Positions 2,305 through 42,450 of a DNA stretch of 60,695 nucleotides are shown here, piece by piece. The notes under the pieces were generated by a model. That model did no database searches and was not told the origin of the DNA. It saw only the letters and a list, made by a program, of their open reading frames with translations. The stretch's first letter is position 1. Every line of letters starts with the position of its first letter. The position numbers were made by a program, and so were the translations under genes. The DNA is taken from assembly GCA_048370055.1 (NCBI GenBank), contig DBGBVX010000005.1, positions 1 to 60,695 of the forward strand. Direction: 5' to 3'. Source of the DNA: Candidatus Gallimonas sp. Its GTDB lineage: Bacteria > Bacillota > Clostridia > Christensenellales > Borkfalkiaceae.

Positions 2305-2393
2305 ATCGCTCTTCTCCCCTAAAAATCCGTAAAGTTGCTATCATTCCCCGCGCAAGTACAATCGCATTTTTCGCCCGCGTTATAAAATCCTTT

Positions 2394-2590
2394 GCAAAAG
2401 GCGTCACTGCGTTATGCCTTTTGCGCCCCTAATTGTCGCTTGCGACTTCTGCGGAAAAGTGAGCCGATGCGCGCTATACTGTTGCGAAAGGCGCATCGGT
2501 GAGAAAAACCGAACACAAAGCCAACGGCGACTGTTGGATTTTTCTCAAAATCACGAAGATTTTCCGCGTCAGTTCGCGGAAAATCTGTGA
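2394..2590 (+). repeat. Five-hairpin intergenic repeat element, copy 1
   Basis: 197 bp. H1 is 2394-2424 (GCAAAAGGC/GCCTTTTGC) and H1b is GTCG/CGAC. H2 is 2464-2499 (CCGATGCGC/GCGCATCGG). H3 is 2501-2546 (GAGAAAAA/TTTTTCTC with inner CCAAC/GTTGG). H4 is 2552-2589. It ends 4 nt before the TGA of the convergent response-regulator gene. Confidence 0.9.
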
Positions 2591-2594
2591 GCCT

Positions 2595-3251
2595 TCACCC
2601 GATCACTTCTTTCATCTTTGCCACGGCTTCGCTGCGCGAGGATACGCCGAGCTTGACGTAGATCGCCGAAATATAGTTGCGCGAAGTGCCGTCCATCAGT
2701 TTGAGCGCGCTTGCGATCTGCTTGTTGGTAAAGCCTTCGTAGATCATGATCGCGATCTCGACTTCGCGGTCGGAAAAGGCGAAGGCGCGTTTGAGCCTGA
2801 TCTCGCGGTCGGTGGAGACCATTTTCGCCGCGTCGGCAATGCGGCGGGCGATCTTGGCGGGCAGGATGGTATCGCCCGCGTAGGCGTTTTTGATGGCGTC
2901 GATGAGCGCCGCGGACGAGGTATCCTTCAAAAGATAGCCGCTCGCGCCGTTGTTGATGGCGTTGAGGATATAGTCGCTGTCGTCAAAGGTCGTTAAAATG
3001 AGCACCTTGACTTCGGGACGGCGGCGCTTGACTTCCTGCGTGGCGATGACCCCGTTCATGTTGGGCATGCGGATATCCATCAGGATGACGTCGGGCTTGC
3101 ACGTTTCGAGCATGCCGAGCGCCTCGAACCCGTCCGCCGCGATGCCGACCACCTCGATCTCGGGGCAGGAAGAGAGGACGCTCTTGATGCCGTCGGCAAG
3201 GATGGACTGATCGTCTGCAAGAAGTACGCGAATTTTTTTAATTGGTTCCAT
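2595..3251 (-). CDS. Response regulator, NarL/LuxR family
   Basis: 218 aa. The receiver domain has DD...D (VILMDIRMP) and K (YLLKD), and there is a C-terminal LuxR HTH (SDREVEIAIMIYEGFTNKQIA). A GAGGT RBS lies inside the end of the kinase gene. Confidence 0.9.
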   Translation of the reverse strand: MEPIKKIRVLLADDQSILADGIKSVLSSCPEIEVVGIAADGFEALGMLETCKPDVILMDIRMPNMNGVIATQEVKRRRPEVKVLILTTFDDSDYILNAINNGASGYLLKDTSSAALIDAIKNAYAGDTILPAKIARRIADAAKMVSTDREIRLKRAFAFSDREVEIAIMIYEGFTNKQIASALKLMDGTSRNYISAIYVKLGVSSRSEAVAKMKEVIG

Positions 3252-6780: not shown

Positions 6781-9700
6781 TTATTTTGCTTTGACGAGCG
6801 TGAGCGTGACGCTGTCGCCGTTCACGTCGAGCGTGCGGGTAAAGCCCTCCGCACTCCCCTCCGTGAGGCTGACCGCGAGCACGTCGGCGGCGATGCCGCC
6901 CTTTTTGAGCATCTTCTCCGCCCTGCCTGCCGCAGTGAAGTACACCGCGATGCGGTCGGTCACTTCGAAGCCCGCCTCCTTGCGCATCGTCTGGATCTTG
7001 GAGACGAGTTCGCGCTCCGTGCCCTCGTCGAGCAGCGCCTCATTGAGCTGCGTATTCAGCGCGACGGTGATCCCGCCGCCGACCGCCGTGGCGTAGCCCT
7101 CCGCCGACTGCGTGAAGATCTGCAGATCCTCCTCGAGGAGCACGACCTGCTCGCCCTCCAACTCCACCGAATAGGAGCCGTTTGCCCTGACCGCGGAGAC
7201 GACCTCCGCGCCGTCGCAGGAGGAAAGGAACGCCGTGATGGCTTTGAGTTTTTTGCCGTACTTGGGGCCGAGCGTTCTCAGCTGCGGCTTGAGTTCGTAG
7301 CGCACGAGCGAAGCGCCGTCCGTGACGAACGTCATCTTTTTGACGTTGAGCTCGTCGAGCGCCACCGCCATGAGTTCGCCCTCGATCGCAAGCGGGCGGT
7401 TGCTCGCCACGAGCATCTCCGAAAGCGGCTGACGGTTCTTGACGCTGCCCGCGTTGCGCGCGGCTCTGCCGAGGGCGACGACGTCCAGAACGTCCGCCAT
7501 GCCCTTTTCGAGCGCGGGGTCGATGAAGCTCTCGTCCGCCGCGGGGAAGTCGCACAGGTGCACCGATTGGGGCGCGGAAGGATAGAACGCCGGCACAAGG
7601 TTCTGATACATCATCTCCGCCATGAAGGGCGTGTAGGGCGCGATGACCTTGGCGAGCGTGACGAGCACGGTATAGAGCGTCGTATATGCCGCCGCCTTGT
7701 CCTCCGTCATCTCGCTCCCCCAATAGCGGTCGCGGCCGCGGCGCACATACCAGTTGGAGAGCACGTCCGAAAAGTCCTGAATGGCGCGGGCGCTGTCCGT
7801 AATGTTGTACTCCGCGAGCATCTGATCCACGTTTTTGACGAGCGTGTTGAGCTTGGATAAAACCCACTTATCCATGAGCGAGAGCCTGCACGTTTTGAGA
7901 TCGTACTTCGAAGGGTCGTACTTATCGATCTCGGCGTACAGCGTGAAGAACGCATAGGTGTTCCAAAGGGTCCCTTGGAACTTGCGCTGCACTTCGCTGA
8001 CCGCCTCGGCGCCGAAGCGCGAAGGGATCCACGGCGCGCTGTTCGTATAGAAGTACCAACGCACGGCGTCAGCGCCCTGCTTATCGAGCACGCTCCACGG
8101 GTCGACGACGTTGCCCTTGTGCTTGCTCATCTTTACGCCGTCTTTATCGTTGACGTGCCCCAAAACGATGCAGTTTTTGAAGGGCGCGCGGTCGAAGAGG
8201 ATGGTCGAGATGGCGAGCAGCGTGTAGAACCAGCCGCGCGTCTGATCGACCGCCTCGGAGATGAAATCCGCGGGGAAGGTCTCCTCGAAGAGATCTTTGT
8301 TCTCGAAGGGATAGTGATACTGCGCGAAGGGCATGGAGCCCGAATCGAACCAGCAGTCGATGACCTCGGGCGTGCGCTTCATCTTGCCGCCGCACTTGGG
8401 GCAGGCGCAGGTGAGATCGTCGAGGTAAGGTCTGTGCAGCTCGATATCCCCCTCTACGTGGCACTTTTCTTTGAGTTCGGCTTTGGAACCGATGACCTCG
8501 ATCGCGCCGCAGTCGGGGCATACCCACACGGGGAGCGGCGTGCCCCAGTAGCGGTCGCGCGAGAGCCCCCAGTCGATGACGTTTTCGAGGAAGTTGCCCA
8601 TGCGCCCCTCTTTGATGGTCTCGGGCATCCAGTTCACCGAACGATTGGCGGCGATGAGGTGCTCCTTGACCTTGGTCACCTCGATGAACCAGCTCGAACG
8701 GGCGTAATAGAGGAGCGGCGTATCGCACCGCCAGCAGAAGGGATAGCTGTGTTCGAAGGGCACTTTTTTGAAGAGCAGCCCCTTCTCTTCGAGCATATCC
8801 AGAATGACCTTATCCGCCTTCTTCGCAAACAGCCCGTTGAGTTCGGGGCAGCGCTCGTCGAAACAGCCGCGCTCATTGACGAGCTGCACCACGGGCAAGC
8901 CGTATTTTCTGCCCACCTTGTAGTCGTCCTCGCCGAACGCGGGCGCAATATGCACCACGCCTGTGCCGTCGGTCAGGGTGACGTAGGGATCGCACACCAC
9001 ATAGAACGCCTTCTCGCGGAAGGAGCCGACGGAATAGGAGAAGAGTGGCTCGTACTCGGTGCCCTCGTACTCCCTGCCCGTGCGCTTTTCGATGAGCGTG
9101 TAGTTCTCAAAGAAATCGGAAACGAGCGCCTCCGCCATGATATAGCGCGCACCGTCCGACTCGATCTCCACATACGTCTCGTCGGGATTCATACAGAGCG
9201 CGACGTTGGAAGGGAGCGTCCACGGGGTCGTCGTCCATGCGAGGATATAGGCATTCTCGCGCCCCTTCACCTTGAACCGCGCGACGACGGAAGTCTCCTT
9301 TACGTCTTTATACCCCTGCGCGACCTCGTGCGAGGAGAGCGCCGTGCCGCAGCGCGGGCAATAAGGGACGATCTTGTGCCCCTTGTACAGAAGCCCCTTC
9401 TTGTGGATCTCCTTGAGCGCCCACCAGACGGACTCGATATAGTCGTCGTGATAGGTGACGTAGGGGTTATCCATGTCAACCCAATAGCCGACGCGGTCAC
9501 TCATCTTGCGCCATTCGTCGGTATATTTCCACACGGACTCCTTGCACTTTTTGATGAAGGGCTCGATGCCGTATTTTTCGATGTCCTGCTTGCCGTCCAT
9601 ACCGAGGGACTTTTCCACTTCCAGCTCGACGGGCAAGCCGTGCGTATCCCAGCCCGCCTTGCGGAGGACGTGTTTGCCCTTCATCGTCTGATAGCGGGGA

Positions 9701-9903
9701 ATGATGTCCTTCATGACGCGCGTTAAGATATGCCCGATGTGCGGCTTTCCGTTTGCCGTGGGCGGACCGTCGAAGAAGGAAAATTCCTCCCCGCCTTCGT
9801 TCTTCTTTACCGATTTTTCGAAGATATCGTTCTCCTTCCAGAACGCGATGACTTCCTTCTCGCGCTCCACAAAGTTGAGCGACGTATCGACTTTCTTGTA
9901 CAT
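6781..9903 (-). CDS. ileS: Isoleucine--tRNA ligase (long, type 2)
   Basis: 1040 aa with class I HIGH (PTANGKPHIGH) and KMSKS (VKMSKHKGN) motifs and CxxC zinc knuckles. The RBS is GAGGTG. Confidence 0.97.
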   Translation of the reverse strand: MYKKVDTSLNFVEREKEVIAFWKENDIFEKSVKKNEGGEEFSFFDGPPTANGKPHIGHILTRVMKDIIPRYQTMKGKHVLRKAGWDTHGLPVELEVEKSLGMDGKQDIEKYGIEPFIKKCKESVWKYTDEWRKMSDRVGYWVDMDNPYVTYHDDYIESVWWALKEIHKKGLLYKGHKIVPYCPRCGTALSSHEVAQGYKDVKETSVVARFKVKGRENAYILAWTTTPWTLPSNVALCMNPDETYVEIESDGARYIMAEALVSDFFENYTLIEKRTGREYEGTEYEPLFSYSVGSFREKAFYVVCDPYVTLTDGTGVVHIAPAFGEDDYKVGRKYGLPVVQLVNERGCFDERCPELNGLFAKKADKVILDMLEEKGLLFKKVPFEHSYPFCWRCDTPLLYYARSSWFIEVTKVKEHLIAANRSVNWMPETIKEGRMGNFLENVIDWGLSRDRYWGTPLPVWVCPDCGAIEVIGSKAELKEKCHVEGDIELHRPYLDDLTCACPKCGGKMKRTPEVIDCWFDSGSMPFAQYHYPFENKDLFEETFPADFISEAVDQTRGWFYTLLAISTILFDRAPFKNCIVLGHVNDKDGVKMSKHKGNVVDPWSVLDKQGADAVRWYFYTNSAPWIPSRFGAEAVSEVQRKFQGTLWNTYAFFTLYAEIDKYDPSKYDLKTCRLSLMDKWVLSKLNTLVKNVDQMLAEYNITDSARAIQDFSDVLSNWYVRRGRDRYWGSEMTEDKAAAYTTLYTVLVTLAKVIAPYTPFMAEMMYQNLVPAFYPSAPQSVHLCDFPAADESFIDPALEKGMADVLDVVALGRAARNAGSVKNRQPLSEMLVASNRPLAIEGELMAVALDELNVKKMTFVTDGASLVRYELKPQLRTLGPKYGKKLKAITAFLSSCDGAEVVSAVRANGSYSVELEGEQVVLLEEDLQIFTQSAEGYATAVGGGITVALNTQLNEALLDEGTERELVSKIQTMRKEAGFEVTDRIAVYFTAAGRAEKMLKKGGIAADVLAVSLTEGSAEGFTRTLDVNGDSVTLTLVKAK

Positions 9904-10165
9904 TTTTCACCTCAAACGCTTTTTTCTGCAAAAAAGCCACCGTATTTTGGATAAAATACGATGACTTTATAACCACCAAAACATACGAACATATGCCCTC
10001 TTTGATAACGCGGAAGGATACCGCGCACGGGGCTACGCTCACCTGATCTCGCCCCGCGGGCACGAAAGGGGATACCCGAACGCCGCTCGCCTCCCCCTTT
10101 CACCTTTGCGGGGTCTCTCTGTGCGCGAAGCATTGCGCCGGACGCGTCCTTTCTTGACGCCTTTT
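9904..10165 (-). promoter_or_regulatory. T-box leader (candidate Ile AUC specifier) with terminator/antiterminator
   Basis: Read on the - strand it shows the AG bay AGAGAG, distal loop GGUGAAA, a GAG-AUC-A specifier candidate (10045-10047) and an F-box-like CGUUA. The T-box core UUGGUGGUU lies within + coordinates 9959-9982. The terminator CATCGTATTTT/AAAATACGGTG plus T-tract is at 9930-9963. An upstream CGTATGTTTT can compete for AAAATACG. The T-box 3' half is non-canonical (UAUAAAG instead of ACCGCG). Confidence 0.7.
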
Positions 10166-10171
10166 TTCTTT

Positions 10172-10200
10172 ATTATAGCGGCTTACCGCGCAAAAGTAAA
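10172..10200 (-). promoter_or_regulatory. Promoter TTTACT-17-TATAAT for the ileS leader
   Basis: -10 TATAAT is at 10172-10177 (rc) and -35 TTTACT at 10195-10200 (rc), with a 17-nt spacer. Confidence 0.5.
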
Positions 10201-10229
10201 GCGTTTTGAAAAGAATTTTTGCGAAGAGG

Positions 10230-10322
10230 CGCCGCGCGTTTCAGGCGTACCGTTCGGCTCAGCCGGACTGCCCTATACGGCGCTCCGCCGCAACGATGTC
10301 AGTTCAAAAAGAAATCTGTGAG
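10230..10322 (+). repeat. Decayed relic of the five-hairpin element (H3/H4 part)
   Basis: ...AGGCGTAC...GATGTCAGTTCAAAAAGAAATCTGTGA compares with the consensus AGGCGTAC...CGCGTCAGTTCGCGGAAAATCTGTGA. The H4 stem is no longer complementary. Confidence 0.55.
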
Positions 10323-10328
10323 AATAGC

Positions 10329-10364
10329 AAAAAAGAAGCCGCCCCGCAGTGCGGAACAGCTTCC
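10329..10364 (-). terminator. Rho-independent terminator after amt::PII
   Basis: On the - strand, GAAGCTGTTCCG-cact-GCGGGGCGGCTTC (12 bp including G-U pairs) is followed by TTTTTT. A further hairpin GCCGTCCTC/GAGGACGGC at 10406-10440 sits directly after the stop codon. Confidence 0.75.
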
Positions 10365-17059: not shown

Positions 17060-17134
17060 CGTTCGTTCCTTGAGACCGCGTAATTTTGCCGATGGTTACA
17101 TTCCTGTTCTAAATCACTCGCGCAAGCAGGGTTC

Positions 17135-17227
17135 CCCTGCTATAAATTTTCCGCAAAAGGCGTCCCTGCGTTATACCTACTTGCTATAAATTACAGATAC
17201 AAGGGGATTTCCCTGCTATAAATTCCC
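17135..17227 (+). repeat. Partial tandem duplication of the left flank/H1 arm of the repeat element
   Basis: CCTGCTATAAATTttCCGCAAAAGGCGTCcCTGCGTTATaCC (17135-17176) is a diverged copy of CCTGCTATAAATTcCCGCAAAAGGCGTCaCTGCGTTATgCC (17212-17252). TGCTATAAATT occurs three times, starting at 17137, 17181 and 17214. Confidence 0.75.
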
Positions 17228-17431
17228 GCAAAAGGCGTCACTGCGTTATGCCTTTTGCGCCCCAATTTGCTGCTTGTGCGGCTTATGGAGAAAGCGTGAG
17301 CCGCCGCGTGCTATACTGTTGCCAAACAGCGGCGGCGAGAGAAAACTCATTGTCAGGCGCTTGCGCCGTGCAATGGGTTGTCTCTCAAAATCACGAAGAT
17401 TTTTCCCGTCAGTTCGGGAAAAATCTTGTGA
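17228..17431 (+). repeat. Five-hairpin intergenic repeat element, copy 2
   Basis: 204 bp. H1 is 17228-17258 and identical to copy 1. H1b is GCTGC/GCGGC. H2 is 17300-17336 (GCCGCCGC/GCGGCGGC). H3 is GAGAGAAAAC/GTTGTCTCTC. H4 is 17392-17430 with compensatory GATTTTTCCCG/CGGGAAAAATC. It ends 5 nt before the TAA of the convergent helicase gene. Confidence 0.9.
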
Positions 17432-17436
17432 ACCCC

Positions 17437-18690
17437 TTATCTGATTATCACAAGTCTCTTCTTCGCCCGCGTGACGGCGGTATACAGCCACTCGCGCCCG
17501 TTCTCGAAATAGCCCGATTCATCAATGACGACGACAAAGTCGTACTCCGAACCCTGCGCCTTGTGGCAGGTGACGGCATAGGCAAACTCGAACCTGCAGA
17601 CGGTATCTTCGCGGCGCACCTTGAAACGGCGGAGCATCTCGCGGTTATCTTCGTGCACCAAGATCCCGTTTGTGAGCAGGCAGGCGCGGTTGCCGTAGCC
17701 GTGGTAGTACTGCCCGCGCACGAAAACGCCCGTATCGAAGGGCAGATCCTCCACGCGGTCGGGCAGAAATTCGGGCTGAAAATCGAGCTGACCGAGCCCG
17801 TCGAGCTGTTCGCGGACGTGATAGCACGTTCCGATGATGCCGTTCACGAGGTGGAAATCCCCCTTTTCGTCGAGCGGCTTGCTCCAATCGTTGAGCGTGC
17901 AGATGATCTTTTCCCCCTCTTCGGGAAGGACCTGCTCGGGCGAAATACCGTGAAAGGCGCGCACTTCGCGGTTGACGAGGGCGCGCGTGCGGTTGGTGCC
18001 GACGATGATCTGATCCGCCTCGCAGAAAAGTTTTTGCCGTGCGGCGACGTCGAGCGAGCGGCGGGGAATGACGGACACGCTGCCGTATTCGCCGTACTGC
18101 GGGCGCTCCCCCGCGCGGATGCGCTCGGCAAGCCGCACGATGGGATTGTCGCGTTCCTGCCGCACGATCTCGCGGAGGGTGACGACGGGCGTCCGCAGCA
18201 GCGTATTGCTGCCGCCGACGGGCGGGAGCTGAGCGGGATCGCCGCAGCACAGGCACTTGACCCCGAACGACAGAAGATCCCTCAAAACGTCGTCGGAGAC
18301 CATGCTCGTCTCGTCGAGCACGATGAGTTTGATCTTGGAATCGATGGACTCCTTTTTGACAAAGCGCAAAAACTGCTCGGAGATGACTTCGCCGTTTTCG
18401 TCTACCTCGATATCCTCCTCGCGAGTATAGATGAGACTGTGCACCGTGGTGGCGGGCACGCCGTTGCGGATAAGCACGGAAGCGGCTTTCCCCGTGGGCG
18501 CGACGAACGCCGCGCTCTCCCCCGCGACGAGCCCGAGCGCGCGCACGATATAATCGACGAGAAAGGTCTTGCCCGTTCCCGCATAGCCGCACAGCACGAA
18601 GATCTGCGTATTCAGATGAAAATACCACGCCTCGATGAGCGCCGCAGCTTCCTGCTGACCGGCGGTGAGCGTGGGCGTATTCCCGTCCAT
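17437..18690 (-). CDS. SF1 RecD/Pif1-like ATP-dependent DNA helicase
   Basis: 417 aa with Walker A GYAGTGKTF, Walker B LIVLDETSM and the C-terminal SF1 motifs AVTCHKAQGSEYD and LYTAVTRAKKRLVII. Confidence 0.8.
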   Translation of the reverse strand: MDGNTPTLTAGQQEAAALIEAWYFHLNTQIFVLCGYAGTGKTFLVDYIVRALGLVAGESAAFVAPTGKAASVLIRNGVPATTVHSLIYTREEDIEVDENGEVISEQFLRFVKKESIDSKIKLIVLDETSMVSDDVLRDLLSFGVKCLCCGDPAQLPPVGGSNTLLRTPVVTLREIVRQERDNPIVRLAERIRAGERPQYGEYGSVSVIPRRSLDVAARQKLFCEADQIIVGTNRTRALVNREVRAFHGISPEQVLPEEGEKIICTLNDWSKPLDEKGDFHLVNGIIGTCYHVREQLDGLGQLDFQPEFLPDRVEDLPFDTGVFVRGQYYHGYGNRACLLTNGILVHEDNREMLRRFKVRREDTVCRFEFAYAVTCHKAQGSEYDFVVVIDESGYFENGREWLYTAVTRAKKRLVIIR

Positions 18691-18696
18691 ACGTCA

Positions 18697-18725
18697 AGTA
18701 TACTACGAAGCCTGCAAAAAAGCAA
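18697..18725 (-). promoter_or_regulatory. Promoter TTGCTT-17-TATACT placed 6 nt before the helicase ATG (leaderless candidate)
   Basis: -10 is at 18697-18702 (rc) and -35 at 18720-18725 (rc). Only TGACGT separates the -10 from ATG 18690, and there is no SD. Confidence 0.5.
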
Positions 18726-18793
18726 ACATTCGTTCAAAGTATTTTTGTTTTTTCTTCCCGCGCGAGGAATTTCTTTCACGCGCCCCCGATTTA

Positions 18794-18822
18794 TTGCAAA
18801 AATCCCGCGGATATGATAAAAT
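18794..18822 (+). promoter_or_regulatory. Promoter TTGCAA-17-TAAAAT for asnA
   Basis: TTGCAA is at 18794-18799 and TAAAAT at 18817-18822. A small hairpin GGCGGC/GCCGCC in the 40-nt leader precedes the AGGAG RBS. Confidence 0.55.
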
Positions 18823-24662: not shown

Positions 24663-25160
24663 ATGATCTGCGTATATTATACCACGGAAAAAGTGGAGAG
24701 CCGCGCGTTCTTGGCGCGCGTGCTCGAAGAATTTTACGGCATACGCGGCGCGGCGCGGCGGCTGCAATTTGGCTTGCACGGAAAGCCCTACTTAAAGGAC
24801 GCGCCCGTGCGGTTCAACCTCTCGCACAGCGGCGCGCTCACAGCCGTGGCTGCGGGGCGGCACCGCGTGGGGTTGGACGTTCAGAAGCGCGACGGCAAGC
24901 TGCGTGAAGCGATCCTTGCGCGCCTTACCCCCGCCGAGCGCGAAGAGGACTTTTTCCGCCTGTGGACGGCGAAGGAGGCGTACATCAAGTACTGCGGCGG
25001 TTCGCTCGCAGCGACGCTCCCCCGCCTTGTCTTTGAAGGCGGCACCCTCTATGAAGATGAAAAACTCGTACCCGCGCACCTTTTTTTCGACGAATTGGAA
25101 GGCTGCGCCCTCTGCGTCTGTTCAGAAAAGGAAGAAAATATCGTCTACCGCCCACTATAA
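24663..25160 (+). CDS. 4'-phosphopantetheinyl transferase superfamily protein (short Sfp-type)
   Basis: 165 aa with GKPYL...FNLSHSG, GLDVQ and WTAKEAYIKYCG motifs. The N-terminal subdomain is shorter than in classical Sfp. Confidence 0.75.
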   Translation: MICVYYTTEKVESRAFLARVLEEFYGIRGAARRLQFGLHGKPYLKDAPVRFNLSHSGALTAVAAGRHRVGLDVQKRDGKLREAILARLTPAEREEDFFRLWTAKEAYIKYCGGSLAATLPRLVFEGGTLYEDEKLVPAHLFFDELEGCALCVCSEKEENIVYRPL

Positions 25161-25940
25161 CACGTCGTACCAAACGTTGATTTCGGGAACGAGCGCCTGC
25201 GCCTTCGGCAGGCGCTCGTTGACTGCTGCGGGGAATTTTTTGGTGCCGACGCGCTTGCTCACGGGCGGGAAAGCGTCGTCGAAGTGATCGATCATCACGT
25301 TCTCGGGCGCGAACACATCGAGAAAGGGCTTGATCTCGCGGTGCATGCCCGTCCTGCCCTGATAGGGAAAGACGAGAAGATCGGCGCCCTTCGGATACGC
25401 CTCCCCTTCCGCCATGCCCGCCGACCCGAGCACGGCGACGGACTTTTCGCCGTCCGTGACATGAAAAACAAAGATCTCGTCCATGGGGATGATGTAGCGT
25501 TTCGCCGCGGAGAGCAGCCGCACAGCGTCCGCAAAATGCAGCCATGTGCGCGGGGAAAAGAGCACGCGGAATACGGTAGCTGCGTCGAACGCGCAGTGCC
25601 GCCCGCGGTACGCTGTGACGGTGAACGCCCCCGCGGCGACGCTTTCGCCCGCCCGCAGTTCGCGCATGACGGACGTATCGAGCCCGTTCCTCCGCGCGAG
25701 CGCAATGCCGCGCGCCGAGACGTAAACGGGGCGTTTTCCCTCGGAAAAGAAATCGGTATCGCAGAAATGGTCGATATGCGGATGCGTGATAAAGATCGTC
25801 TCCGCCTGCCGCGCCTCCTCCACGGGGAAGGGCGCGCCCGCGCGATCGAACTTCCGCAGATACGGGTCGATGAGCAGCCGCGTATCCCCGCTCTCCAACA
25901 GCAGGGACGCCGTGCCGCACCACATGATCTTCATATTCAC
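25155..25940 (-). CDS. MBL-fold metallo-hydrolase
   Basis: 261 aa with the ITHPHIDHF (HxHxDH) motif. The RBS is AGAGGTG. Confidence 0.8.
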   Translation of the reverse strand: MNMKIMWCGTASLLLESGDTRLLIDPYLRKFDRAGAPFPVEEARQAETIFITHPHIDHFCDTDFFSEGKRPVYVSARGIALARRNGLDTSVMRELRAGESVAAGAFTVTAYRGRHCAFDAATVFRVLFSPRTWLHFADAVRLLSAAKRYIIPMDEIFVFHVTDGEKSVAVLGSAGMAEGEAYPKGADLLVFPYQGRTGMHREIKPFLDVFAPENVMIDHFDDAFPPVSKRVGTKKFPAAVNERLPKAQALVPEINVWYDVL

Positions 25941-26018
25941 CTCTCTTTTGCTGCCAAACCATTATACGGGAGAAAGGGCGCGCTGTCAACCCCTTCGTAA
26001 AAACGGGCGGAGAAATCG

Positions 26019-26047
26019 TTGACAACGCCCGCCCTGCGGGGTACAAT
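26019..26047 (+). promoter_or_regulatory. Promoter TTGACA-17-TACAAT 6 nt before the TraX-family ATG (leaderless candidate)
   Basis: TTGACA is at 26019-26024 and TACAAT at 26042-26047, followed by TTTCAT and ATG 26054. There is no SD. Confidence 0.6.
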
Positions 26048-26053
26048 TTTCAT

Positions 26054-26830
26054 ATGCAGAACGAACAGGACAGCTTTAAGGGCATTTTCAGCGGAAACGC
26101 CCTCAAACTTATCGCGTGCGTTTTTATGCTCGTCGACCACACGGGCGCCATCCTCTTTCCGGAGATTGCGGCGCTGCGCGCGGCGGGTAGGCTCGCCATG
26201 CCGCTGTTCGCCTTCACCTTCGCCGAAGGATGTTTTTACACCAAGAAACGGCTCCTCCACTTTTTCCTCGTTTTCGGCATCGGGCTCGTGACGAGCGCGG
26301 GATTTTCCCTCGCCGAGGGAGCGCCGCGCGGCGACATCATGATCTCCTTTACGATGGCGAGCCTTGTGATATGGTCGCTCGACTCCCTCAAACGCGGCGT
26401 CTTTCAGCGGAGCGCCAAGCGGACCGCCCTCTCCGCGGCAGCCCTGCTTGCCTCGCTCGCCCTCGCGGTATGGGTATGCTGTTTTTCGCCCATGCGCGTG
26501 GATTACGGGCTCGCGGGCGTATTGCTCCCCGTGACGGTAAGGCTTTTGGACTTCCGCTCCTACGGCGGGAAAGGGCTGATCGCGGAGCTCTACCACCCCG
26601 CGACGACCATTCTCCTGTTCACCGTATGCCTGCTCGTCATCGCCATCCCGCGGGGGAGCCTTCAGCTCTTTTCGCTCCTTTCCCTGCCCTTTCTCCTGCT
26701 GTACAACGGCAGGCGCGGAAAATATCGGCTCAAATACTTCTTCTATGCCTTTTATCCCCTGCACCTCGCCCTTTTGGCGGGGATATTCCTCGCCCTGCAC
26801 CCCGAATCGATCGCGGCTATTTTTTCATGA
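26054..26830 (+). CDS. TraX family membrane protein
   Basis: 258 aa, polytopic. The N-terminal LKLIACVFMLVDHTG motif is typical of the TraX family. Confidence 0.75.
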   Translation: MQNEQDSFKGIFSGNALKLIACVFMLVDHTGAILFPEIAALRAAGRLAMPLFAFTFAEGCFYTKKRLLHFFLVFGIGLVTSAGFSLAEGAPRGDIMISFTMASLVIWSLDSLKRGVFQRSAKRTALSAAALLASLALAVWVCCFSPMRVDYGLAGVLLPVTVRLLDFRSYGGKGLIAELYHPATTILLFTVCLLVIAIPRGSLQLFSLLSLPFLLLYNGRRGKYRLKYFFYAFYPLHLALLAGIFLALHPESIAAIFS

Positions 26831-26836
26831 CGGTAC

Positions 26837-26862
26837 GGCGGGCGCGCATATGCGCGCCCGCC
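26837..26862 (+). terminator. GC-rich palindromic hairpin after the TraX-family gene
   Basis: GGCGGGCGCGCAT/ATGCGCGCCCGCC is a perfect palindrome, but only a weak T-tract (ATTTTA) follows it. Confidence 0.5.
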
Positions 26863-26961
26863 GCCACATTTTAAGGCGGAAAATTGTTTTTAGTTATGTC
26901 CGCGAGGAAGGTTGCCTTCCGCTGCGGTACTCAATTTGCGCACATCCATTACAAATTCGTT

Positions 26962-27281
26962 GCAAAAGGCGTCACTGCGTTATGCCTTTTGCGCCCCTGA
27001 TTGTTGCATAAGCAACTTTTGAGGAAAGAGTGAATGCGGCGCGCTATTATGTTGCGATTGCGCCGCAGAGAGGTGAGCGCGTACGTTATGCCGACAGCCC
27101 CCTGTGGGGCTTCGGCGTATGCGCGAACTGAGAAATTGCCATATCAAGGGCAATTTCGTGACCGAAACCGCGCTTTCCATCGGCGCGGTTGAGACAAACC
27201 CGCGGTTAGCCGTAGGCGTACCCGCGGGTTTTCTCTCAAACTCACGAAGATTTTCCGCGTCAGTTCGCGGAAAATCTGTGA
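26962..27281 (+). repeat. Five-hairpin intergenic repeat element, copy 3, carrying a 123-bp nested insertion
   Basis: 320 bp. H1 is 26962-26992, H1b is GTTGC/GCAAC, H2 is 27035-27067 (TGCGGCGC/GCGCCGCA) and H4 is 27243-27280. Relative to copy 4, an extra segment 27073-27195 lies inside the H3 stem. The element ends 9 nt before the TAA of the convergent ferritin-like gene. Confidence 0.9.
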
Positions 27282-27290
27282 ATTGCGGTT

Positions 27291-28538
27291 TTACGCTCCT
27301 TTTACGCGGCCGACGTCGGTATTGTCCCGCTTTCTGTCGGCGAGCGCGCGGACAGGATGCTCCTTCCCCATGAGGCGGTAGTCCTGCCCGAGGCGCTCGA
27401 TGGCTTTTTCGATGACGGTGTGCGTGCCCGCCGCCTCCACGCTGCCGTGGACGCGCGCGTTATAGCCGAAGTAACGGAAGGAATCGGGGAGCTTATCCAC
27501 ATCCTCGAATCCCTCCTCCACGCCCGTAAGGCGCACGCTTTTGAGCACCTCGCGGATATACTCCTTCTGCGGACGGAATTTCAGAAGCTCGGGGAACTCG
27601 CCGCCCTCGGGCAGCACCTGCTGCCATACCTTTCCGCCGTATACGCGCAGAAGTTCCGCCGCCTCGTGCAGGTGCGAGACCTCCTCCAAAAAGTGCATCT
27701 CCCAAATCTTTTTAATGCGCGCGTCCGTCTCGTCCTCGTAGCAGGAATAATACAGGTAACACTCGGTATACTCGTTCATGAGGAGATTTTCCCACTCGCT
27801 CATGCAGGGATCTTTGAGGCAGCCGTATCCCGTGACGTGCTGTTCCTCGATCATGGCGATCTCGTTGAAGAGCTTTCTCCCGAGCGGCGAGGCGTACAGG
27901 TTGCCGACGTTCATATAAAAGTTCATCGTCTGCTGTTCCGCCGCCGTGATGATGTTCACGTTGAGCTTTGTTCTGAGGTCGTTGAGATAGCCGTTCATAT
28001 AAAAGCGCACGTCGTCGAAGGGGTGGCGGTATTCCGACACGGTGGGCCGCCCGGGCATGATCTCGGTATACTCGCCCACGAGGCGCGCGGGATCGCCGCC
28101 CTTTTCCAATTCCATGAGATCGGCATAGCGGTAAAGGTGATCGAAGTCCTCCAAAAGCGCGAAGTCGAGCTGCTTTTTGACGTAGCCGTTCTTTTCGCTG
28201 AGCGCGAGGTTGGCGGTGAGATCGACCGCGAGCTGTTCATAACCGATGGTGTGTTCCAAAATGCTCTCGTCGGCGGGTTTGAGCGAAGCCACGCGCTTTT
28301 GCTGAAGCTGTTCGCCGCGGCGCATGTACGCAAGGCGGCGGCGCACGTCGTTGTTGGGGCACATGCGCGACATGGCGTGCGTGAGCCGCACCGACTCGAA
28401 CTCGGTGCCCGACATTAAGATGATGCGCAGACGGGTATAGGGATCCACCGCGTTCTTATCGTATGCCCTGACGAGCACTTTCTTCCATTCCGTAAAGACC
28501 TTGTCCGCCTTCTGCGGTTTGAGTTCAAAGGGATTCAT
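27291..28538 (-). CDS. Ferritin-like (di-iron carboxylate) domain protein, function unknown
   Basis: 415 aa from ATG 28538 (AAGGAGGAG RBS). Repeated E/DxxH motifs (LEDFDH, EEQH, EEVSH) suggest a di-metal four-helix bundle. I cannot name a family. Confidence 0.6.
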   Translation of the reverse strand: MNPFELKPQKADKVFTEWKKVLVRAYDKNAVDPYTRLRIILMSGTEFESVRLTHAMSRMCPNNDVRRRLAYMRRGEQLQQKRVASLKPADESILEHTIGYEQLAVDLTANLALSEKNGYVKKQLDFALLEDFDHLYRYADLMELEKGGDPARLVGEYTEIMPGRPTVSEYRHPFDDVRFYMNGYLNDLRTKLNVNIITAAEQQTMNFYMNVGNLYASPLGRKLFNEIAMIEEQHVTGYGCLKDPCMSEWENLLMNEYTECYLYYSCYEDETDARIKKIWEMHFLEEVSHLHEAAELLRVYGGKVWQQVLPEGGEFPELLKFRPQKEYIREVLKSVRLTGVEEGFEDVDKLPDSFRYFGYNARVHGSVEAAGTHTVIEKAIERLGQDYRLMGKEHPVRALADRKRDNTDVGRVKGA

Positions 28539-28605
28539 TTTCTCCTCCTTTCCGCTTTGAATTTTACGGGAATTATTGCCTGCCTGAAAAGGTTTATTCA
28601 TTTGA

Positions 28606-28634
28606 TTGCAAATCGCAGGCAAAATTGTTATAAT
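28606..28634 (+). promoter_or_regulatory. Promoter TTGCAA-17-TATAAT (extended TG) for mtnN-luxS-ung
   Basis: TTGCAA is at 28606-28611, TGT-TATAAT ends at 28634, and a ~130-nt leader follows. Confidence 0.6.
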
Positions 28635-28765
28635 ACAAGCGAGAAAACTTGCTTGCAAGGGTTTTCGAGCGCCGTAGTACAAGAGAAAACGCTTTTTTCC
28701 GTGGATAACGGAAATTCTGCAAGTTTCCGATTTCGGAACATACCTGAAACACAAGGAGGCTATAC

Positions 28766-29425
28766 ATGATCGGCGTAGTTGTTGCAATGGATTCGGAGGC
28801 GGAAGCCCTCCTCAGTCAGATGGACATGGAAAATATCCTTACCGTGCACGGAAAGCCCGTGTATGCGGGCAAGGCGTTCGGGAAGGACGCGCTCGTGTGC
28901 GTATGCGGCGTGGGCAAGGTGAACGCGGCAGTCGGCGCCTGCGCGGTGTTGGAAAAGGGCGCCGAGGTCGTTCTCAACTTCGGCGTTGCGGGCGGACTGC
29001 ACGAGAAAACGCAGCTGACGGAAGTATACCTCATCGACAGAGCCGTGCAGTACGACTTTGACCTCACACAATTAAACGGCGGGAACGTGGGCACCCTCGA
29101 CGGCGAAACGGAGAACTTTTTGCCCCTTTGCACGCCCGCGGCGCTCGACTACCCGCGCCGCGCGCTCGGCTCGGGCGATCGGTTCAACGACAGCGCCGCC
29201 GATCACGACCTGCTCCTCTCCCTCGGCGCGGATATCCGCGACATGGAGGGCGCGGCGATCGCCGAAGTGTGCAAATACGCGGGCGTTCCCCTCGTCTCCG
29301 TGAAGGCGATCTCCGACGTATACGGCGCGGGCAGCACGACGGAACAGTACAAAAAGAACACTGCCCGCGCGATGCTCAACTTAAAGGCGTTCATGGGCGA
29401 GATCTTCGCCGCGCTCGAAGCGTGA
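28766..29425 (+). CDS. mtnN: 5'-methylthioadenosine/S-adenosylhomocysteine nucleosidase
   Basis: 219 aa with the PNP_UDP_1 fold motifs IGVVVAMDSEA, GVGKVNAA and DMEGAAIA. The RBS is AAGGAGG. Confidence 0.9.
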   Translation: MIGVVVAMDSEAEALLSQMDMENILTVHGKPVYAGKAFGKDALVCVCGVGKVNAAVGACAVLEKGAEVVLNFGVAGGLHEKTQLTEVYLIDRAVQYDFDLTQLNGGNVGTLDGETENFLPLCTPAALDYPRRALGSGDRFNDSAADHDLLLSLGADIRDMEGAAIAEVCKYAGVPLVSVKAISDVYGAGSTTEQYKKNTARAMLNLKAFMGEIFAALEA

Positions 29426-32754: not shown

Positions 32755-32819
32755 GAAAGCGCGCCGCCCGCAGTCCTCTGCGGGCGGCTCTTGTTATGTC
32801 CGAGCGCGCGGCGATACGT

Positions 32820-32848
32820 TTGACATTTCCCCCGCGGGGGCGTATAAT
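32820..32848 (+). promoter_or_regulatory. Consensus promoter TTGACA-17-TATAAT for the 961-aa lipoprotein gene
   Basis: TTGACA is at 32820-32825 and TATAAT at 32843-32848, with GGGAG as RBS before ATG 32890. Confidence 0.7.
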
Positions 32849-32889
32849 GTAGGCAGGGATACGGGCAGAGATGCCCATGGGAGTACACG

Positions 32890-35775: not shown

Positions 35776-35823
35776 AAAACGCCCGCAGCCGCGGACGTTC
35801 AAAAACACCGATGATCTTAAATC

Positions 35824-37504: not shown

Positions 37505-38767
37505 TTATTCGTGCGGCGCCGCGGGAAGCGGCGCCTCGTCGGGCGAAGCGTCCGCCTTTTTGACTTCATAAATGCCCTGTACGGCGGCGTAACTGTCGCG
37601 GCGGAGCAGTTTTTTCTGCACGAGGGCGCCCGTCGCGTCGTACACGAGCAGATAGCTCTCGCTTTTCAGCCCCTCTTTTTCGGCGCGCACCGTCCTGTCC
37701 TCCTCGCCCTCCCGAAGCTCCGCCTCGGGCGGCGGGATGCGCGCGAGAACGCGGCTCTCCGTTTTATACCGCATGCCGTCCGGCTTGCCGTATACCTCGA
37801 ACGTGACCTTCCCGCCCGACGTCCGCCCCAAAAGATACACGGGGAACGGGTAGGGATTGGAGAATTTGAGATCGCTCCAGCGGGAGACCATGGCGTCGAG
37901 CGAGGGCTTTACATAGCCCACCGAGAGCGAGTGCGGGCGGCTCTCGGTGACGGCGAGCCCCGCCTCGAGCGCCGCGTTCATGAGCGTTGTGGAAGCCTGA
38001 CACACGCCCCCGCCCGTCCCCGAGACGTACTCCCCGCCCGAGATGATGGGCGCCTCCAAAAACCCGTTTTCCGCCGTCCGCAGCCCCACGGCGGCGTTGA
38101 ACGAGAAGCTCTCCCCGGGGAGCAGTACGCTGCCCGCGACGCGCTCGCAGGCGAGGGCGATGTTGTGCGCCCGCGCCGTTTTGGACGCGTCGAAATAAGT
38201 AGAGAAGGAGGAGAGCTTCTGCGTGCGCTCTTTGAGCTGCGCCCGCGTGACGGATGGCTGCCAGATGTGCGTGACAAGCGACGCCTGCGCCTCCCCCGCG
38301 CCGAGCGCGCGGAGCGCCGCGGCGAGCGAGGCGGCGCGATCGCAGTACACCCCTGCGCGCTCCTTCGCGTAGGAAAATCCGAATCGGGTAAAGGAGAGCG
38401 CGGCGTCCTCCGGCGCGCGCATGCCCCTCTCGCACAGCCGCGCGATCTCCTCTTCCGCACCCACCCATACGCGGCGCACGGTCGCCTCCAAAATATCCCC
38501 CTTCCGCGCCTTCCGCACGAGCATGGGCACGTCGTCCGAATACTCGATCGCGGGCATGGTATCGCCGAAAGGCGTGTGGAGGGTGAAGGGAACGCGCTCC
38601 GCGGCAAGTTTTTTGCGCACCGTCGCGATCGCCTCGCTGTAGGGCATGCCCCCGACCTCGACCCCCGAGACGACGACGTCTGCCCTGACGCACCCCGCGC
38701 GCCCGAGAAAGAAAAACGCGCTCCCCGCGAGGAGGAGCGCCAAAATGCAGGCAAAAACTTTTTTCAT
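37505..38767 (-). CDS. VanW family protein
   Basis: 420 aa with an N-terminal TM/signal anchor and the VanW core motif GGGVCQASTTLMNAAL. Its ATG overlaps the PHP gene stop (ATGA). Confidence 0.8.
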   Translation of the reverse strand: MKKVFACILALLLAGSAFFFLGRAGCVRADVVVSGVEVGGMPYSEAIATVRKKLAAERVPFTLHTPFGDTMPAIEYSDDVPMLVRKARKGDILEATVRRVWVGAEEEIARLCERGMRAPEDAALSFTRFGFSYAKERAGVYCDRAASLAAALRALGAGEAQASLVTHIWQPSVTRAQLKERTQKLSSFSTYFDASKTARAHNIALACERVAGSVLLPGESFSFNAAVGLRTAENGFLEAPIISGGEYVSGTGGGVCQASTTLMNAALEAGLAVTESRPHSLSVGYVKPSLDAMVSRWSDLKFSNPYPFPVYLLGRTSGGKVTFEVYGKPDGMRYKTESRVLARIPPPEAELREGEEDRTVRAEKEGLKSESYLLVYDATGALVQKKLLRRDSYAAVQGIYEVKKADASPDEAPLPAAPHE

Positions 38768-39606
38768 TCGCTCTCCCGAAGGCGGGCGAAGATCTCCAAA
38801 AGGCGCGCGTCGGGCTCGAACGGAGGCTGACCGATGGCGCGGTTGCGCATGCCCTCGGCATGAAAATCCGAACCGCCCGTAAGGTACAGCCCCTTCCTCT
38901 CTCCGTACGCGCGGAAGTACGCCCGCTCGGTATCAGTATGGTCGGAGTGCGTGTATTCTATCCCGTCCAATCCGTGCAAAACAAGCGCGTCCATGAGCTT
39001 TTCGCGCGCTTCGAAGTCAAGCGGGATGCGCCCCGGGTGCGCAAGGGAGGCGATGCCGCCCGTCTGATGGATGACGTCGATCGCGTCGAAGGGCGTGGGG
39101 CGCATCTTATCGGAATAGCAGGGCTTGCCCGCGCTGAAATATTCCAAGTACAGCTCCCCTTTTTTGCGCCCGAGACGGCTCGCGAACGCCCCCACGACAT
39201 GCATGGTATGCAGGGGCGCCTCCTTTTTGAGGTGGAGTTTTTCCGCGTCGTCCAACGTGAGGGAGAGCCCGAACACCGCGTTCGCCCGCGCGATCATCTC
39301 TTCGGCGCGCACGAGGGCGCCCTCTTTGCGGCGCGCAAGGAACGCCCGATACGACGCGTCGGGGCGGCAGCCGTACCCGAGAACGTGCACCTTCGCCGCG
39401 CCCGCATAGGAAGAGACCTCCCACCCCGCGATGAACTGCAATCCCTGCGCCGCGGCGGCGGCGCGCTTTTCGCCGAGTCCCTCGAGGCTGTCGTGATCGG
39501 TCATGGAGAGAAGCTCCACGCCCGCGGCTTTCACGCGCGCGGCGATCTCGGCGGGCGTATACGCTCCGTCCGAATAGATCGTATGGATATGCAGATCTGC
39601 CCTCAT
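38764..39606 (-). CDS. PHP domain phosphoesterase
   Basis: 280 aa from ATG 39606, which overlaps the recF stop. Motifs are ADLHIHTIYSDG and MTDHDS. Confidence 0.8.
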   Translation of the reverse strand: MRADLHIHTIYSDGAYTPAEIAARVKAAGVELLSMTDHDSLEGLGEKRAAAAAQGLQFIAGWEVSSYAGAAKVHVLGYGCRPDASYRAFLARRKEGALVRAEEMIARANAVFGLSLTLDDAEKLHLKKEAPLHTMHVVGAFASRLGRKKGELYLEYFSAGKPCYSDKMRPTPFDAIDVIHQTGGIASLAHPGRIPLDFEAREKLMDALVLHGLDGIEYTHSDHTDTERAYFRAYGERKGLYLTGGSDFHAEGMRNRAIGQPPFEPDARLLEIFARLRESE

Positions 39607-40688: not shown

Positions 40689-40741
40689 GCGGGATTTTTT
40701 TGAAAAACGCTTTCTTTTTGGCGCATTTTGTACTATAATGA

Positions 40742-40755
40742 GAGTGTATACACTC
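40742..40755. promoter_or_regulatory. Perfect 14-bp palindrome GAGTGTATACACTC in the recF-dnaA spacer
   Basis: It lies 2 nt downstream of the best -10 candidate (TATAAT, 40734-40739) for dnaA. The binding partner is unknown. Confidence 0.4.
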
Positions 40756-40817
40756 CCAACCGACAGATAATATTATACCAAAACCGCACGAAAAGGAAAA
40801 GCGTTTGCGAGGGAAAT

Positions 40818-42161: not shown

Positions 42162-42165
42162 GTGT

Positions 42166-42363
42166 TCACAGATTTTCCGCGAACTGACGCGGAAAATCTT
42201 CGTGATTTTGAGAGACAACCCGCGGGTACGCCTACGGCTAACCGCGTGTTTTCTCTCTGCGGCGCAATCGCAACATAATAGCGCGCCGCATTCACTCTTT
42301 CACCGTAAGCCGCGTAAGCGGCAAATTGTGGTGCAAAAGGCATAACGCAGTGACGCCTTTTGC
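42166..42363 (-). repeat. Five-hairpin intergenic repeat element, copy 4 (inverted orientation)
   Basis: 198 bp. Its reverse complement aligns end to end with copies 1-3. The H4 end is at 42167-42204 and starts 4 nt after the dnaA TAA. H2 is identical to copy 3, H1b is GCCGC/GCGGC, and H1 is at 42333-42363. Confidence 0.9.
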
Positions 42364-42414
42364 AACCATATTACAGCATTATAATAACACTGCCAAAAAC
42401 CAAATTATCACGAG

Positions 42415-42437
42415 AAAAATCCCTTTACGGGATTTTT
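42415..42437 (+). terminator. AT-rich hairpin AAAAATCCC-tttac-GGGATTTTT just upstream of mnmG
   Basis: The 9-bp stem ends in a T-run, 14 nt before ATG 42451. It could terminate dnaA/repeat read-through. The function is uncertain. Confidence 0.4.
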
Positions 42438-42450
42438 GCATATTGATACC

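Follow-up and report, generated by a model that had tools for sequence, protein, structure and literature searches.

The stretch of Candidatus Gallimonas DNA analysed here (60,695 nt, hereafter the window) carries four full copies of a folded intergenic element of about 200 nt. On balance, the element is probably an old, high-copy, genus-restricted mosaic repeat of the BOX/REP/BIME kind with a role in cis at transcript boundaries. The canonical unit is composed of a sigma-A-type -10 box, a 31-nt hairpin (H0), the helix P1, the hairpins H2, H3 and H4, and then GTGAAC. The family is previously undescribed and, among the 185,579 species scanned, is found only in Ca. Gallimonas-type genomes. The original prediction, i.e., either an unannotated structured RNA family or a mobile element resembling BOX, REP or PATE, is supported by the multiple copies, the lack of an Rfam match and the BOX/BIME-like modularity.

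Copies in the window and extent of the family

All four sequences were inspected, and the element copies lie at the positions that had been predicted. The copies, their parts and the modules that precede them are the following.

2394..2592, forward strand: copy 1, core; model R1 156.5 bits, E 1e-42
2394-2424 (H0), 2435-2446 (P1b), 2463-2500 (H2), 2501-2545 (H3), 2550-2590 (H4), then GTGAGC, forward strand: copy 1, parts
2339..2393, forward strand: copy 1, upstream modules, second 5' module type: TATCAT, TCCCCGCGCAAG and a degenerate hairpin
2381-2388, forward strand: copy 1, -10-like box TATAAAAT; position fits the family-wide peak
17228..17433, forward strand: copy 2, core, both H4 arms altered; R1 179.4 bits
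17109..17227, forward strand: copy 2, upstream mosaic of two 5' modules, degenerate H0 and box
17109-17139, forward strand: upstream of copy 2, CTAAAT-CACTCGCGCAAG and hairpin
17141-17178, or about 17150-17178, forward strand: upstream of copy 2, degenerate, truncated partial H0
17186-17214, forward strand: upstream of copy 2, ATAAAT-TACAGATACAAG and hairpin
17214-17223, forward strand: copy 2, box TGCTATAAAT
26962..27283, forward strand: copy 3, core split by a nested module; matched by R1 in two halves
27073..27195, forward strand: three-hairpin module of 123 nt (GTGAGCG...GGTTGAGAC) nested in copy 3, between H2 and H3; missing from the aligned copy 4
26885..26961, forward strand: upstream of copy 3, H0-less 5' module, truncated: CCGCGAG, hairpin GAAGGTTGCCTTC and CGCTGCGGTACTCAATTTGCGC
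26950-26956, forward strand: copy 3, box TACAAAT
42164..42363, reverse strand: copy 4, core; R1 228.2 bits; fold z -7.07
42363-42333 (H0), 42322-42309 (P1b), 42290-42258 (H2), 42257-42211 (H3), 42206-42166 (H4), reverse strand: copy 4, parts
42368..42396, reverse strand: copy 4, promoter-like site from a consensus scan: TTGGCA, 17 nt, TAATAT; ends 4 nt ahead of the first H0 base

The predicted identity of H0 in the four copies is exact. The 31-mer GCAAAAGGCGTCACTGCGTTATGCCTTTTGC has exactly four occurrences in the window (2394, 17228 and 26962 on the forward strand, 42333-42363 on the reverse strand), while 0 are expected by chance; written as arms and loop, GCAAAAGGC-GTCACTGCGTTAT-GCCTTTTGC, it occurs four times without mismatch. 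The H4 28-mer has exactly three occurrences. By alignment, both arms of H4 are changed jointly in copy 2 relative to the other copies, as had been noted. The window copies fold into a row of stem-loops, much more stable than shuffled sequence; the fold of copy 1 (z -4.2) agrees with the family structure.

Copy 3 is scored by R1 as two halves (26962-27124, 106.8 bits; 27132-27283, 94.8 bits) because of the 123-nt insertion at 27073-27195 relative to copy 4. When this insertion is excluded, the identity between copies 3 and 4 is 87-97%. The H0-less 5' variant found upstream of copy 3, which a weak R1 match (26830-26992) overlaps, recurs in other copies of the family. The second-type 5' module of copy 1 was found by a pattern match at 2339-2356. 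The start of the element had been placed at 2394; this position is correct for the onset of H0, but the -10-like box and the additional hairpin modules upstream belong to the element too.

The distance from the 3' end to the stop codon of the neighbouring gene is 2 nt for copy 1 (LuxR-type response-regulator gene; 2595-3251, reverse strand), 3 nt for copy 2 (PIF1/UvrD-like helicase gene; 17437-18690, reverse strand), 7 nt for copy 3 (498-aa ORF; 27291-28787, reverse strand) and 2 nt for copy 4 (dnaA; 40728-42161, forward strand). All four copies face the stop codon of an opposite-strand gene. For copies 1, 2 and 4, the gene on the far side is codirectional with the facing gene, thus the reverse complement of the element fills the spacer between tandem genes.

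The 21-nt core of H0 was scanned against 185,579 species, one genome each. It was found in 78 stretches (loci), all from Ca. Gallimonas or from related or unnamed chicken-gut Clostridia MAGs; the viral contigs scanned gave no match. Several of these loci match the flanks of the window with 82-94% identity, which places the window in a species related to theirs. A covariance model, seeded with seven copies and a hand-drawn structure, gave 158 matches at E<=0.001 in the window and the 78 loci (0.63 Mb of Gallimonas DNA). Of these matches, 118 span at least 170 nt; an exact H0 core is missing from many. The window is an unbiased sample; it has a full copy about every 15 kb (four in 60.7 kb), which suggests, by extrapolation, a copy number on the order of a hundred per genome.

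No known RNA family was recognised. The whole window has no match in Rfam 15 at gathering thresholds, and at E<=10 the surroundings of copy 4 give noise alone (14-19 bits, the cut-offs being 47-64). Nor is a reading frame conserved, in agreement with the original prediction. The ATG in H0 opens a 16-codon ORF in 25 of 64 copies, its frame is not maintained, being broken by indels in the other copies, and there is no SD; a hidden small protein was rejected. An association of copy 4, which follows dnaA, with the replication origin was also rejected: there is no cluster of DnaA boxes near 40.7-42.5 kb and no switch in GC skew.

Stems, loops and the folding strand

Pairs were counted on the 64 best copies, in an alignment fitted to the covariance model, which flatters the pairing figures. 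The compensatory stems predicted for H1b, H2, H3 and H4 are real: 93.1% of the cells pair across the 64 copies, with changes on both sides at 51 of 60 pairs (667 cells). None of 500 shuffles matched any of the pairing measures. When partners were displaced by 1-3 columns (slid controls), pairing fell to 38-54%. Double changes in H4 and H0 are already visible in a plain MAFFT alignment, i.e., one not fitted to the structure. RNAalifold recovered only H0, part of P1 and H4 from this plain alignment because indels misalign H2 and H3, a misalignment overcome with the hand-drawn seed structure and the covariance model.

The stems H2, H3, H4 and inner P1 are very well supported. For the H1 helix, the prediction holds for the inner part (P1b), while the outer part (P1a) is weak, its single pairs being mostly unpaired; overall, the P1 helix is 80% paired. 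Orthologous copies lead to the same picture. Between species, the copies after dnaA show 16 double changes, 14 of which still pair, versus 6 one-sided changes, and after the helicase gene pairing is kept by 6 of 6 double changes.

The stems vary freely whereas the loops are conserved, i.e., the H0 loop, GCUAUACUGUUGC in H2 and UCAGUU in H4, as are the junctions or flanks GUGA, GAGA and UCAC. A kissing interaction of the H4 loop with the H0 or H2 loop, suggested by a 4-nt ACUG/CAGU match, is not supported: the ACUG of H2 varies (AAUG, UAUG), and H0 is constant in a subfamily that has a different H4 loop.

The H2 and H4 stems are almost purely Watson-Crick (1529 Watson-Crick pairs, 11 G·U and 5 A·C). 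Overall, 157 G·U versus 76 A·C represent a modest forward excess, and a third of the 157 is supplied by one invariant H0 pair. The G·U share is alike in gene-facing (0.58) and gene-leading (0.62) copies. Fold z-scores are about -7 on either strand. The comparison of G·U with A·C was consequently rejected as a means of calling the strand, the excess being modest and independent of context and the fold z equal on both strands. The forward strand is the more stable one in 48 of 59 copies (mean 5.8 kcal/mol).

An RNA that evolves through compensatory changes would normally show more wobble pairs. As G·U pairs are nearly absent, conserved pairing alone is no proof of selection on RNA. The conclusion previously drawn from the pairing, selection on a folded RNA or single-stranded DNA, is retained in part: the stems are kept by double-sided changes, but with so few G·U pairs selection on RNA is unproven. 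The double changes could also stem from quasi-palindrome correction at the DNA level or from exchange between copies. The folded molecule could be either strand, as RNA or as single-stranded DNA.

Gene boundaries and the -10 box

All copies of the family are intergenic. Among 106 full copies, 54 face a gene, i.e., their end (H4, GTGAAC) lies -3 to +12 nt from the stop codon of a long opposite-strand ORF; 29 lead a gene, ending 5-45 nt ahead of an SD and start codon on the same strand; the other 23 show neither placement. In 78% of copies, the 3' end thus abuts a stop codon or a ribosome-binding site. This placement is the most striking regularity of the family; like the positioned -10 box and the near absence of G·U pairs, it was not part of the original prediction. 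The 5' side has no tight spacing (median distance 170-240 nt), and this boundary differs from copy to copy. The flanks beside GTGAAC are A/T- and pyrimidine-rich (CCTTTA, CTTTTA, TTA), with no single motif.

The genes downstream in other loci (hslU, def, ilvD, ileS, gyrB, rpsL) have no common function. A riboswitch or cis-regulatory leader was rejected: only 29 of the 106 copies precede genes, these genes are unrelated, 54 face stops, and there is no alternation between terminator and antiterminator. The 29 gene-leading copies leave no space for another promoter, thus the forward strand must be transcribed there. The gene-facing copies, for their part, require reverse-sense transcription of H4 at least.

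Read on its reverse complement, H4 was picked out as terminator-like downstream of dnaA and of the response-regulator gene (tail TCGTGATTTT). The forward strand of H4 has no U-tract, and on the reverse strand a U-tract follows H4 in about half of the gene-facing copies, without link to context; H4 thus does not look like a classical terminator. In 16 of the 54 gene-facing copies the tail is C-rich in place of T-rich, and the A-rich form is no commoner in the facing context. H4-type hairpins (TCAGYT loop) occur 81 times within elements versus twice alone. With this distribution, and a U-tract unrelated to context, a stand-alone terminator family was rejected as the main role; since such hairpins are nearly absent elsewhere, H4 belongs to the element rather than being a generic terminator.

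A TAnnnT hexamer begins 12 to 10 nt before H0 in 48 of 86 distinct upstream sequences, versus about 1 of 86 at other offsets. In these 48 copies a -10-type box lies 5-7 nt ahead of H0; nearly all of the boxes share 5 or 6 positions with TATAAT, and the TG typical of an extended -10 is present in 16. In copy 4 the -35/-10 pair is complete (TTGGCA-17-TAATAT). No conserved -35 was found among the upstream sequences of most copies. A short motif, (C/G)GT(T/G), stands directly 5' of H0. If the box is used, transcription is predicted, from the consensus match, to start at the first bases of H0, and the RNA would therefore open with a hairpin.

History, alternatives and biological meaning

The element is a mosaic. 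Its 5' modules are interchangeable: H0 may be replaced by TAnAAT, CACTCGCGCAAG and a hairpin of variable sequence, and both module types are often in tandem, e.g., upstream of copies 1, 2 and 3. The 123-nt module of copy 3 recurs elsewhere in the family, in either orientation and at different positions. A third small element breaks H4 in three loci (L004, L010, L078). Tandem and truncated units exist; one locus (L054) retains only the -10 box and H0 beside the dnaA stop.

Orthologous sites occur both occupied and empty. The window has no element upstream of ileS, where L059 has one, thus the element is dispensable at a given gene; a T-box identity for the ileS leader beside this empty site was rejected, without Rfam match even at E<=1. 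The window is also empty after a VanW-like gene (occupied in L033, L007 and L062) and upstream of dnaA (occupied in L009). The occupied and empty sites differ by replaced or rearranged flanks (L008/L046; window at 37.5 kb vs. L033 and L007; L059 vs. window at 9.9 kb), and the VanW-like gene itself has a different 3' end in occupied and empty genomes. These comparisons gave no clean insertion with duplication or next to a fixed short motif. L059 has one imperfect 10-nt similarity (ATATGAGGAG vs. ATATAGGAGG).

Copies of the same genome are 60-77% identical, with a maximum of 91%, while H0 is invariant. This low identity means that the family is old, with no sign of a recent burst; as no same-genome pair exceeds 91%, recent mobility was rejected. 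Orthologous copies are retained across species. The invariance of H0 reflects either strong constraint or uniformity through exchange between copies.

The following scheme is proposed for the mosaic repeat. The element would have spread in the intergenic DNA of an ancestor of Ca. Gallimonas and would have been stable since then at orthologous sites, acting in cis at transcript boundaries. The -10 box would start an RNA at the first bases of H0. In Firmicutes, 5'-terminal hairpins guard RNA against decay that depends on the 5' end, and a 5'-terminal H0 may stabilise the RNA likewise. Ahead of a gene of the same direction, the element would provide the promoter and a structured leader. Facing a gene, H4 would lie 0-7 nt past the stop codon and supply a strong 3' hairpin to that mRNA, while the transcript of the element itself would reach or enter the end of that gene. 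Constant loops and an invariant H0 beside variable stems point to a host factor that may read them. Against a boundary role, more than half of the copies would drive antisense transcription into a gene, the benefit of which is hard to see.

Another possibility, unlikely though not markedly so, is a non-autonomous transposon with single-stranded DNA hairpins (a PATE of the IS200/IS605 type, or a REP/REPIN) moved by a Y1 (HUH) transposase encoded elsewhere. H0 and H4 would then be subterminal hairpins recognised by the enzyme, and the stem changes would result from quasi-palindrome correction or recombination rather than from selection on RNA. The element has a hairpin at each end and, as originally predicted, no terminal inverted repeats: its ends, GCAAAAGGCG... 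and ...CTGTGAAC, are not complementary, and a repeat finder gave only internal hairpins and matches between copies. The almost purely Watson-Crick stems with few G·U, the equal folding of both strands, the occupied and empty orthologous sites and the small elements nested within the element also favour such a transposon, and (C/G)GT(T/G) directly 5' of H0 recalls GTAG, the tetranucleotide that adjoins REP hairpins. However, no mover was found in the window. The absence of a transposase from the window was borne out by a Pfam scan of its about 70 ORFs, which are ordinary housekeeping genes with no Y1 or other transposase, integrase or reverse transcriptase. No IS-sized repeat is common to the loci of one genome (longest shared repeat <=526 nt), and none of the copies at about 90 H0 sites has an ORF inside it. 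An autonomous parent element was rejected, there being no H0-to-H4 spacing above about 730 nt and no repeat >526 nt within a genome. Near-identical copies in the same genome (maximum 91%) and clean insertions by a fixed short motif at the empty sites are lacking too. Moreover, loops are better conserved than stems and the three middle hairpins are conserved, neither of which is needed for the recognition of terminal hairpins; a -10 box at fixed distance would have no role.

Slightly less probable again are independent RNA genes or leaders of about 200 nt, each with its own promoter, in which H0 and the loops would bind a protein or ligand and form a regulon, the spread being secondary. The -10 box at a set position, the conserved loops with covarying stems and the higher stability of the forward strand all agree with it. 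So do the invariance of H0 between species in an element whose other parts diverge by 20-40%, the orthologous copies kept through speciation and the 29 copies that are true 5' leaders. On the contrary, the downstream genes are unrelated, only 27% of the copies precede a gene while 51% face a gene end, and presence or absence varies at the same gene between species. No terminator follows H4 to bound a separate small RNA. The exchange of 5' hairpins, the existence of truncated and tandem units and the scarcity of G·U pairs also argue against RNA genes.

It is improbable that the copies, roughly a hundred per genome, form a new promoter-driven class of structured RNA of about 200 nt, with a dedicated protein that would read the invariant 5' hairpin and the conserved loops, either acting at coding boundaries (3' ends of facing mRNAs, ribosome release) or being an RNA-mediated mobile replicon. 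Omega-RNAs lie at the right end of IS200/IS605 elements, and Rfam includes scaffolds of the IS605-orfB/HEARO type. An omega-RNA-like guide scaffold of a transposon-encoded RNA-guided nuclease, with the neighbour-gene end after GTGAAC as guide, is very improbable: the element is multi-hairpin, of the right size and multi-copy, and its conserved hairpin and GTGAAC directly abut variable flanking DNA, but there is no Rfam match, no tnpB/iscB-like gene in the window, no long insertion, hence no such gene, beside any copy, and no fixed motif resembling a target-adjacent one at the opposite boundary.

The reading as a mosaic intergenic repeat is best seen against known systems. The BOX elements of Streptococcus pneumoniae are built as boxA-boxB(n)-boxC and co-reside with the SPRITE repeat (Croucher et al. 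2011, PMC3049150). They are modular, species-restricted, old and co-transcribed, and were judged parasitic yet able to affect co-transcribed genes (PMC3049150); SPRITE is located near the 3' ends of coding sequences (PMC3049150), a closeness that the Gallimonas element shares. Like BOX, the latter is a small, modular, intergenic repeat of a Firmicute with a genome of about 2 Mb, restricted to its genus (one species group for BOX), with conserved end modules, a variable number of internal modules and extensive predicted stem-loops; it is old, with slow new insertion and no transposase inside the element. By likeness, it may be transcribed with its neighbours and alter their expression. Its sequence, G+C content and host class differ plainly from those of BOX, so that the likeness is one of organisation, an analogy and not homology or membership. 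The ends of BOX act as terminal inverted repeats, whereas H0 and H4 are unrelated hairpins. The -10 box fixed before the first hairpin, the 3' end flush (0-12 nt) with stops, and the conserved loops with variable stems also set the Gallimonas element apart from BOX. SPRITE has a long U-rich tract and H4 has none.

REP elements owe their spread to an enzyme whose gene lies elsewhere in the genome; many are found no further than about 15 nt from a stop codon, where they affect the upstream mRNA (3' stabilisation, translation-coupled effects). REP, BIME and REPIN repeats of Proteobacteria have in common with the Gallimonas element a high copy number of extragenic palindromes, mosaics of modules, closeness to stop codons and long persistence, which for REPINs is documented (PMC8049555). 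On the other hand, REPs are single hairpins of about 35 nt with conserved stems and GTAG, and REPINs are inverted pairs, whereas the Gallimonas unit has 200 nt, five different hairpins in one orientation and a promoter-like box. The about 35-nt palindrome, the flanking tetranucleotide and the inverted pairs are not found, the sole resemblance being (C/G)GT(T/G) before H0. The RAYT gene, the defining partner of REPs, has no representative among the about 70 window ORFs.

Correia elements (CREE) of Neisseria supply neighbouring genes with promoters and with hairpins that are terminator-like or RNase-sensitive, are co-transcribed with these genes, and have terminal inverted repeats and a TA target duplication. 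The Gallimonas element is likewise a small repeat bringing a promoter-like site and hairpins to neighbour genes, but shows neither terminal inverted repeats nor, at the sites compared, a TA duplication; the inverted repeats that define classical MITEs (Correia and RUP included) are thus absent. IS200/IS605 PATEs carry a subterminal hairpin at either end, lack terminal inverted repeats and an evident target duplication, and follow a strand-specific logic. The end hairpins, the lack of terminal inverted repeats and of an evident target duplication, and the strand-specific logic are shared by the Gallimonas element; it differs in that neither TnpA/TnpB in the window nor a fixed target motif at one of the boundaries was found and there is no Rfam match, while three internal hairpins are conserved. 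Putative mobile or reused promoters consist of the same promoter-bearing sequence upstream of many unrelated genes in a genome (PMC3575422). In comparison, about a quarter of the copies of the Gallimonas element precede a gene, and its promoter is joined to a 200-nt structured unit.

The finding opens no long-standing question by itself. REP, BOX and Correia repeats shape transcription, mRNA stability and genome plasticity and, to our knowledge, small structured repeats have been described almost solely in cultured pathogens and model organisms. Here an uncultured genus of gut Clostridia carries dense and elaborate structured repeats, with other small repeats nested within them. The combination of a promoter-like box set closely before an invariant hairpin, coding boundaries at the 3' end, and constant loops with variable Watson-Crick stems is unusual. 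The covariance model can be used for the annotation of MAGs and would avert spurious ORF calls such as the MPFAP... peptides, and the copies of the family offer markers for strain typing. With an active promoter, transcription derived from the element would reach about a hundred loci per genome, much of it antisense to gene ends.

Reading frame opening within the element

A 16-codon ORF, MPFAPLFAAHAAYAER, opens at an ATG located in the 3' arm of H0, i.e., the first hairpin of the element (e.g., at window position 17248), and is found in 25 of the 64 best-matching copies. The covarying positions of P1b (the inner P1 stem) are third codon positions of this ORF (GCC/GCG to GCT/GCA, all Ala). The SD sequence is absent and the frame is broken in the remaining copies of the 64; for these two reasons the ORF is taken as coincidental and was rejected as coding. 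It accounts for the spurious peptides and the long ORFs (e.g., 17248-18816) that appear in ORF lists.

Three other long ORFs, 27291-28787(-), 32794-35808(-) and 24985-26046(-), of 498, 1004 and 353 aa, respectively, gave no Pfam match at E<=1e-6. Copy 3 faces the first of these genes.

Genes bordering the element

Two structured regions were located close to genes of the window:
9904-10330 (-): long leader upstream of the isoleucyl-tRNA synthetase gene (ileS, 6781-9903)
42415-42437 (terminator-like on both strands): perfect A/T-flanked hairpin, AAAAATCCC-GTAA-AGGGATTTTT

The gene order at 39603-44322 is recF(-), dnaA(+), mnmG(+). The spacer between recF and dnaA is only ~39 nt, and neither dnaN nor rpmH is adjacent to dnaA in the window. 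Since no DnaA-box cluster and no GC-skew switch were found in the window, the replication origin is probably not next to dnaA here. On the other side of dnaA, the hairpin at 42415-42437 is placed between the promoter-like site of copy 4 and the start codon of mnmG (42451); scant space is left at this spacer for an mnmG promoter.

A canonical terminator hairpin (CGTATTTTATCCAAAATACG, then GTGGCTTTTTT) forms the end of the ileS leader, immediately before the ribosome-binding site of ileS; the leader looks like an attenuator. It matches neither a T-box nor any other Rfam family, even at E<=1. At locus L059, a copy of the element is inserted after this terminator and separates it from the ribosome-binding site.

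The 3' end of the VanW-like gene differs between the window (37505-37560) and the versions abutted by the element at L033, L007 and L062, the gene of the window being ~20 codons longer. Gain or loss of the element seems to have remodelled the C-terminus of the VanW-like protein.

Modules associated with the element

The following modules were distinguished:
2339-2380, 17109-17139, 17186-17214 and 26885-26935 (+): second recurring 5' module
17141-17178 (+): extra H0, degenerate and truncated (GCAAAAGGCGTCCCTGCGTTATACCT), 50 nt upstream of copy 2
27073-27195 (+): three-hairpin module of ~120 nt, separate from the element and nested in its copies
L004 ~2620-2717, L010 ~590-700 and L078 ~1690-1850: third repeat (…CGCAAAAAAGATTTCACAGAAAGATTTTTTGCGAAGAGGAGCGGCGAGCG…)

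The second 5' module consists, in this order, of a -10-like TAnAAT box, CACTCGCGCAAG (or TACAGATACAAG) and a short hairpin whose sequence varies among copies while its pairing is kept. It stands in place of H0 in some copies and ahead of H0 in others. The extra H0 suggests either a tandem duplication or a recombination between modules.

The three-hairpin module (GTGAGCG ... GAAATTGCC-loop-GGCAATTTC ... GGTTGAGAC) is also found at L001, L008, L011, L021, L055, L066, L071, L072 and L077, in both orientations and at varying positions within the element. Since its ends (GGTGA.. / ..GAGA) are similar to the flanks of H2, it may be (i) a diverged duplicate of H2 or (ii) a small mobile element in its own right. 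The third repeat splits the 5' arm of H4 at three loci, each from a different MAG. These genomes contain several families of small nested repeats.
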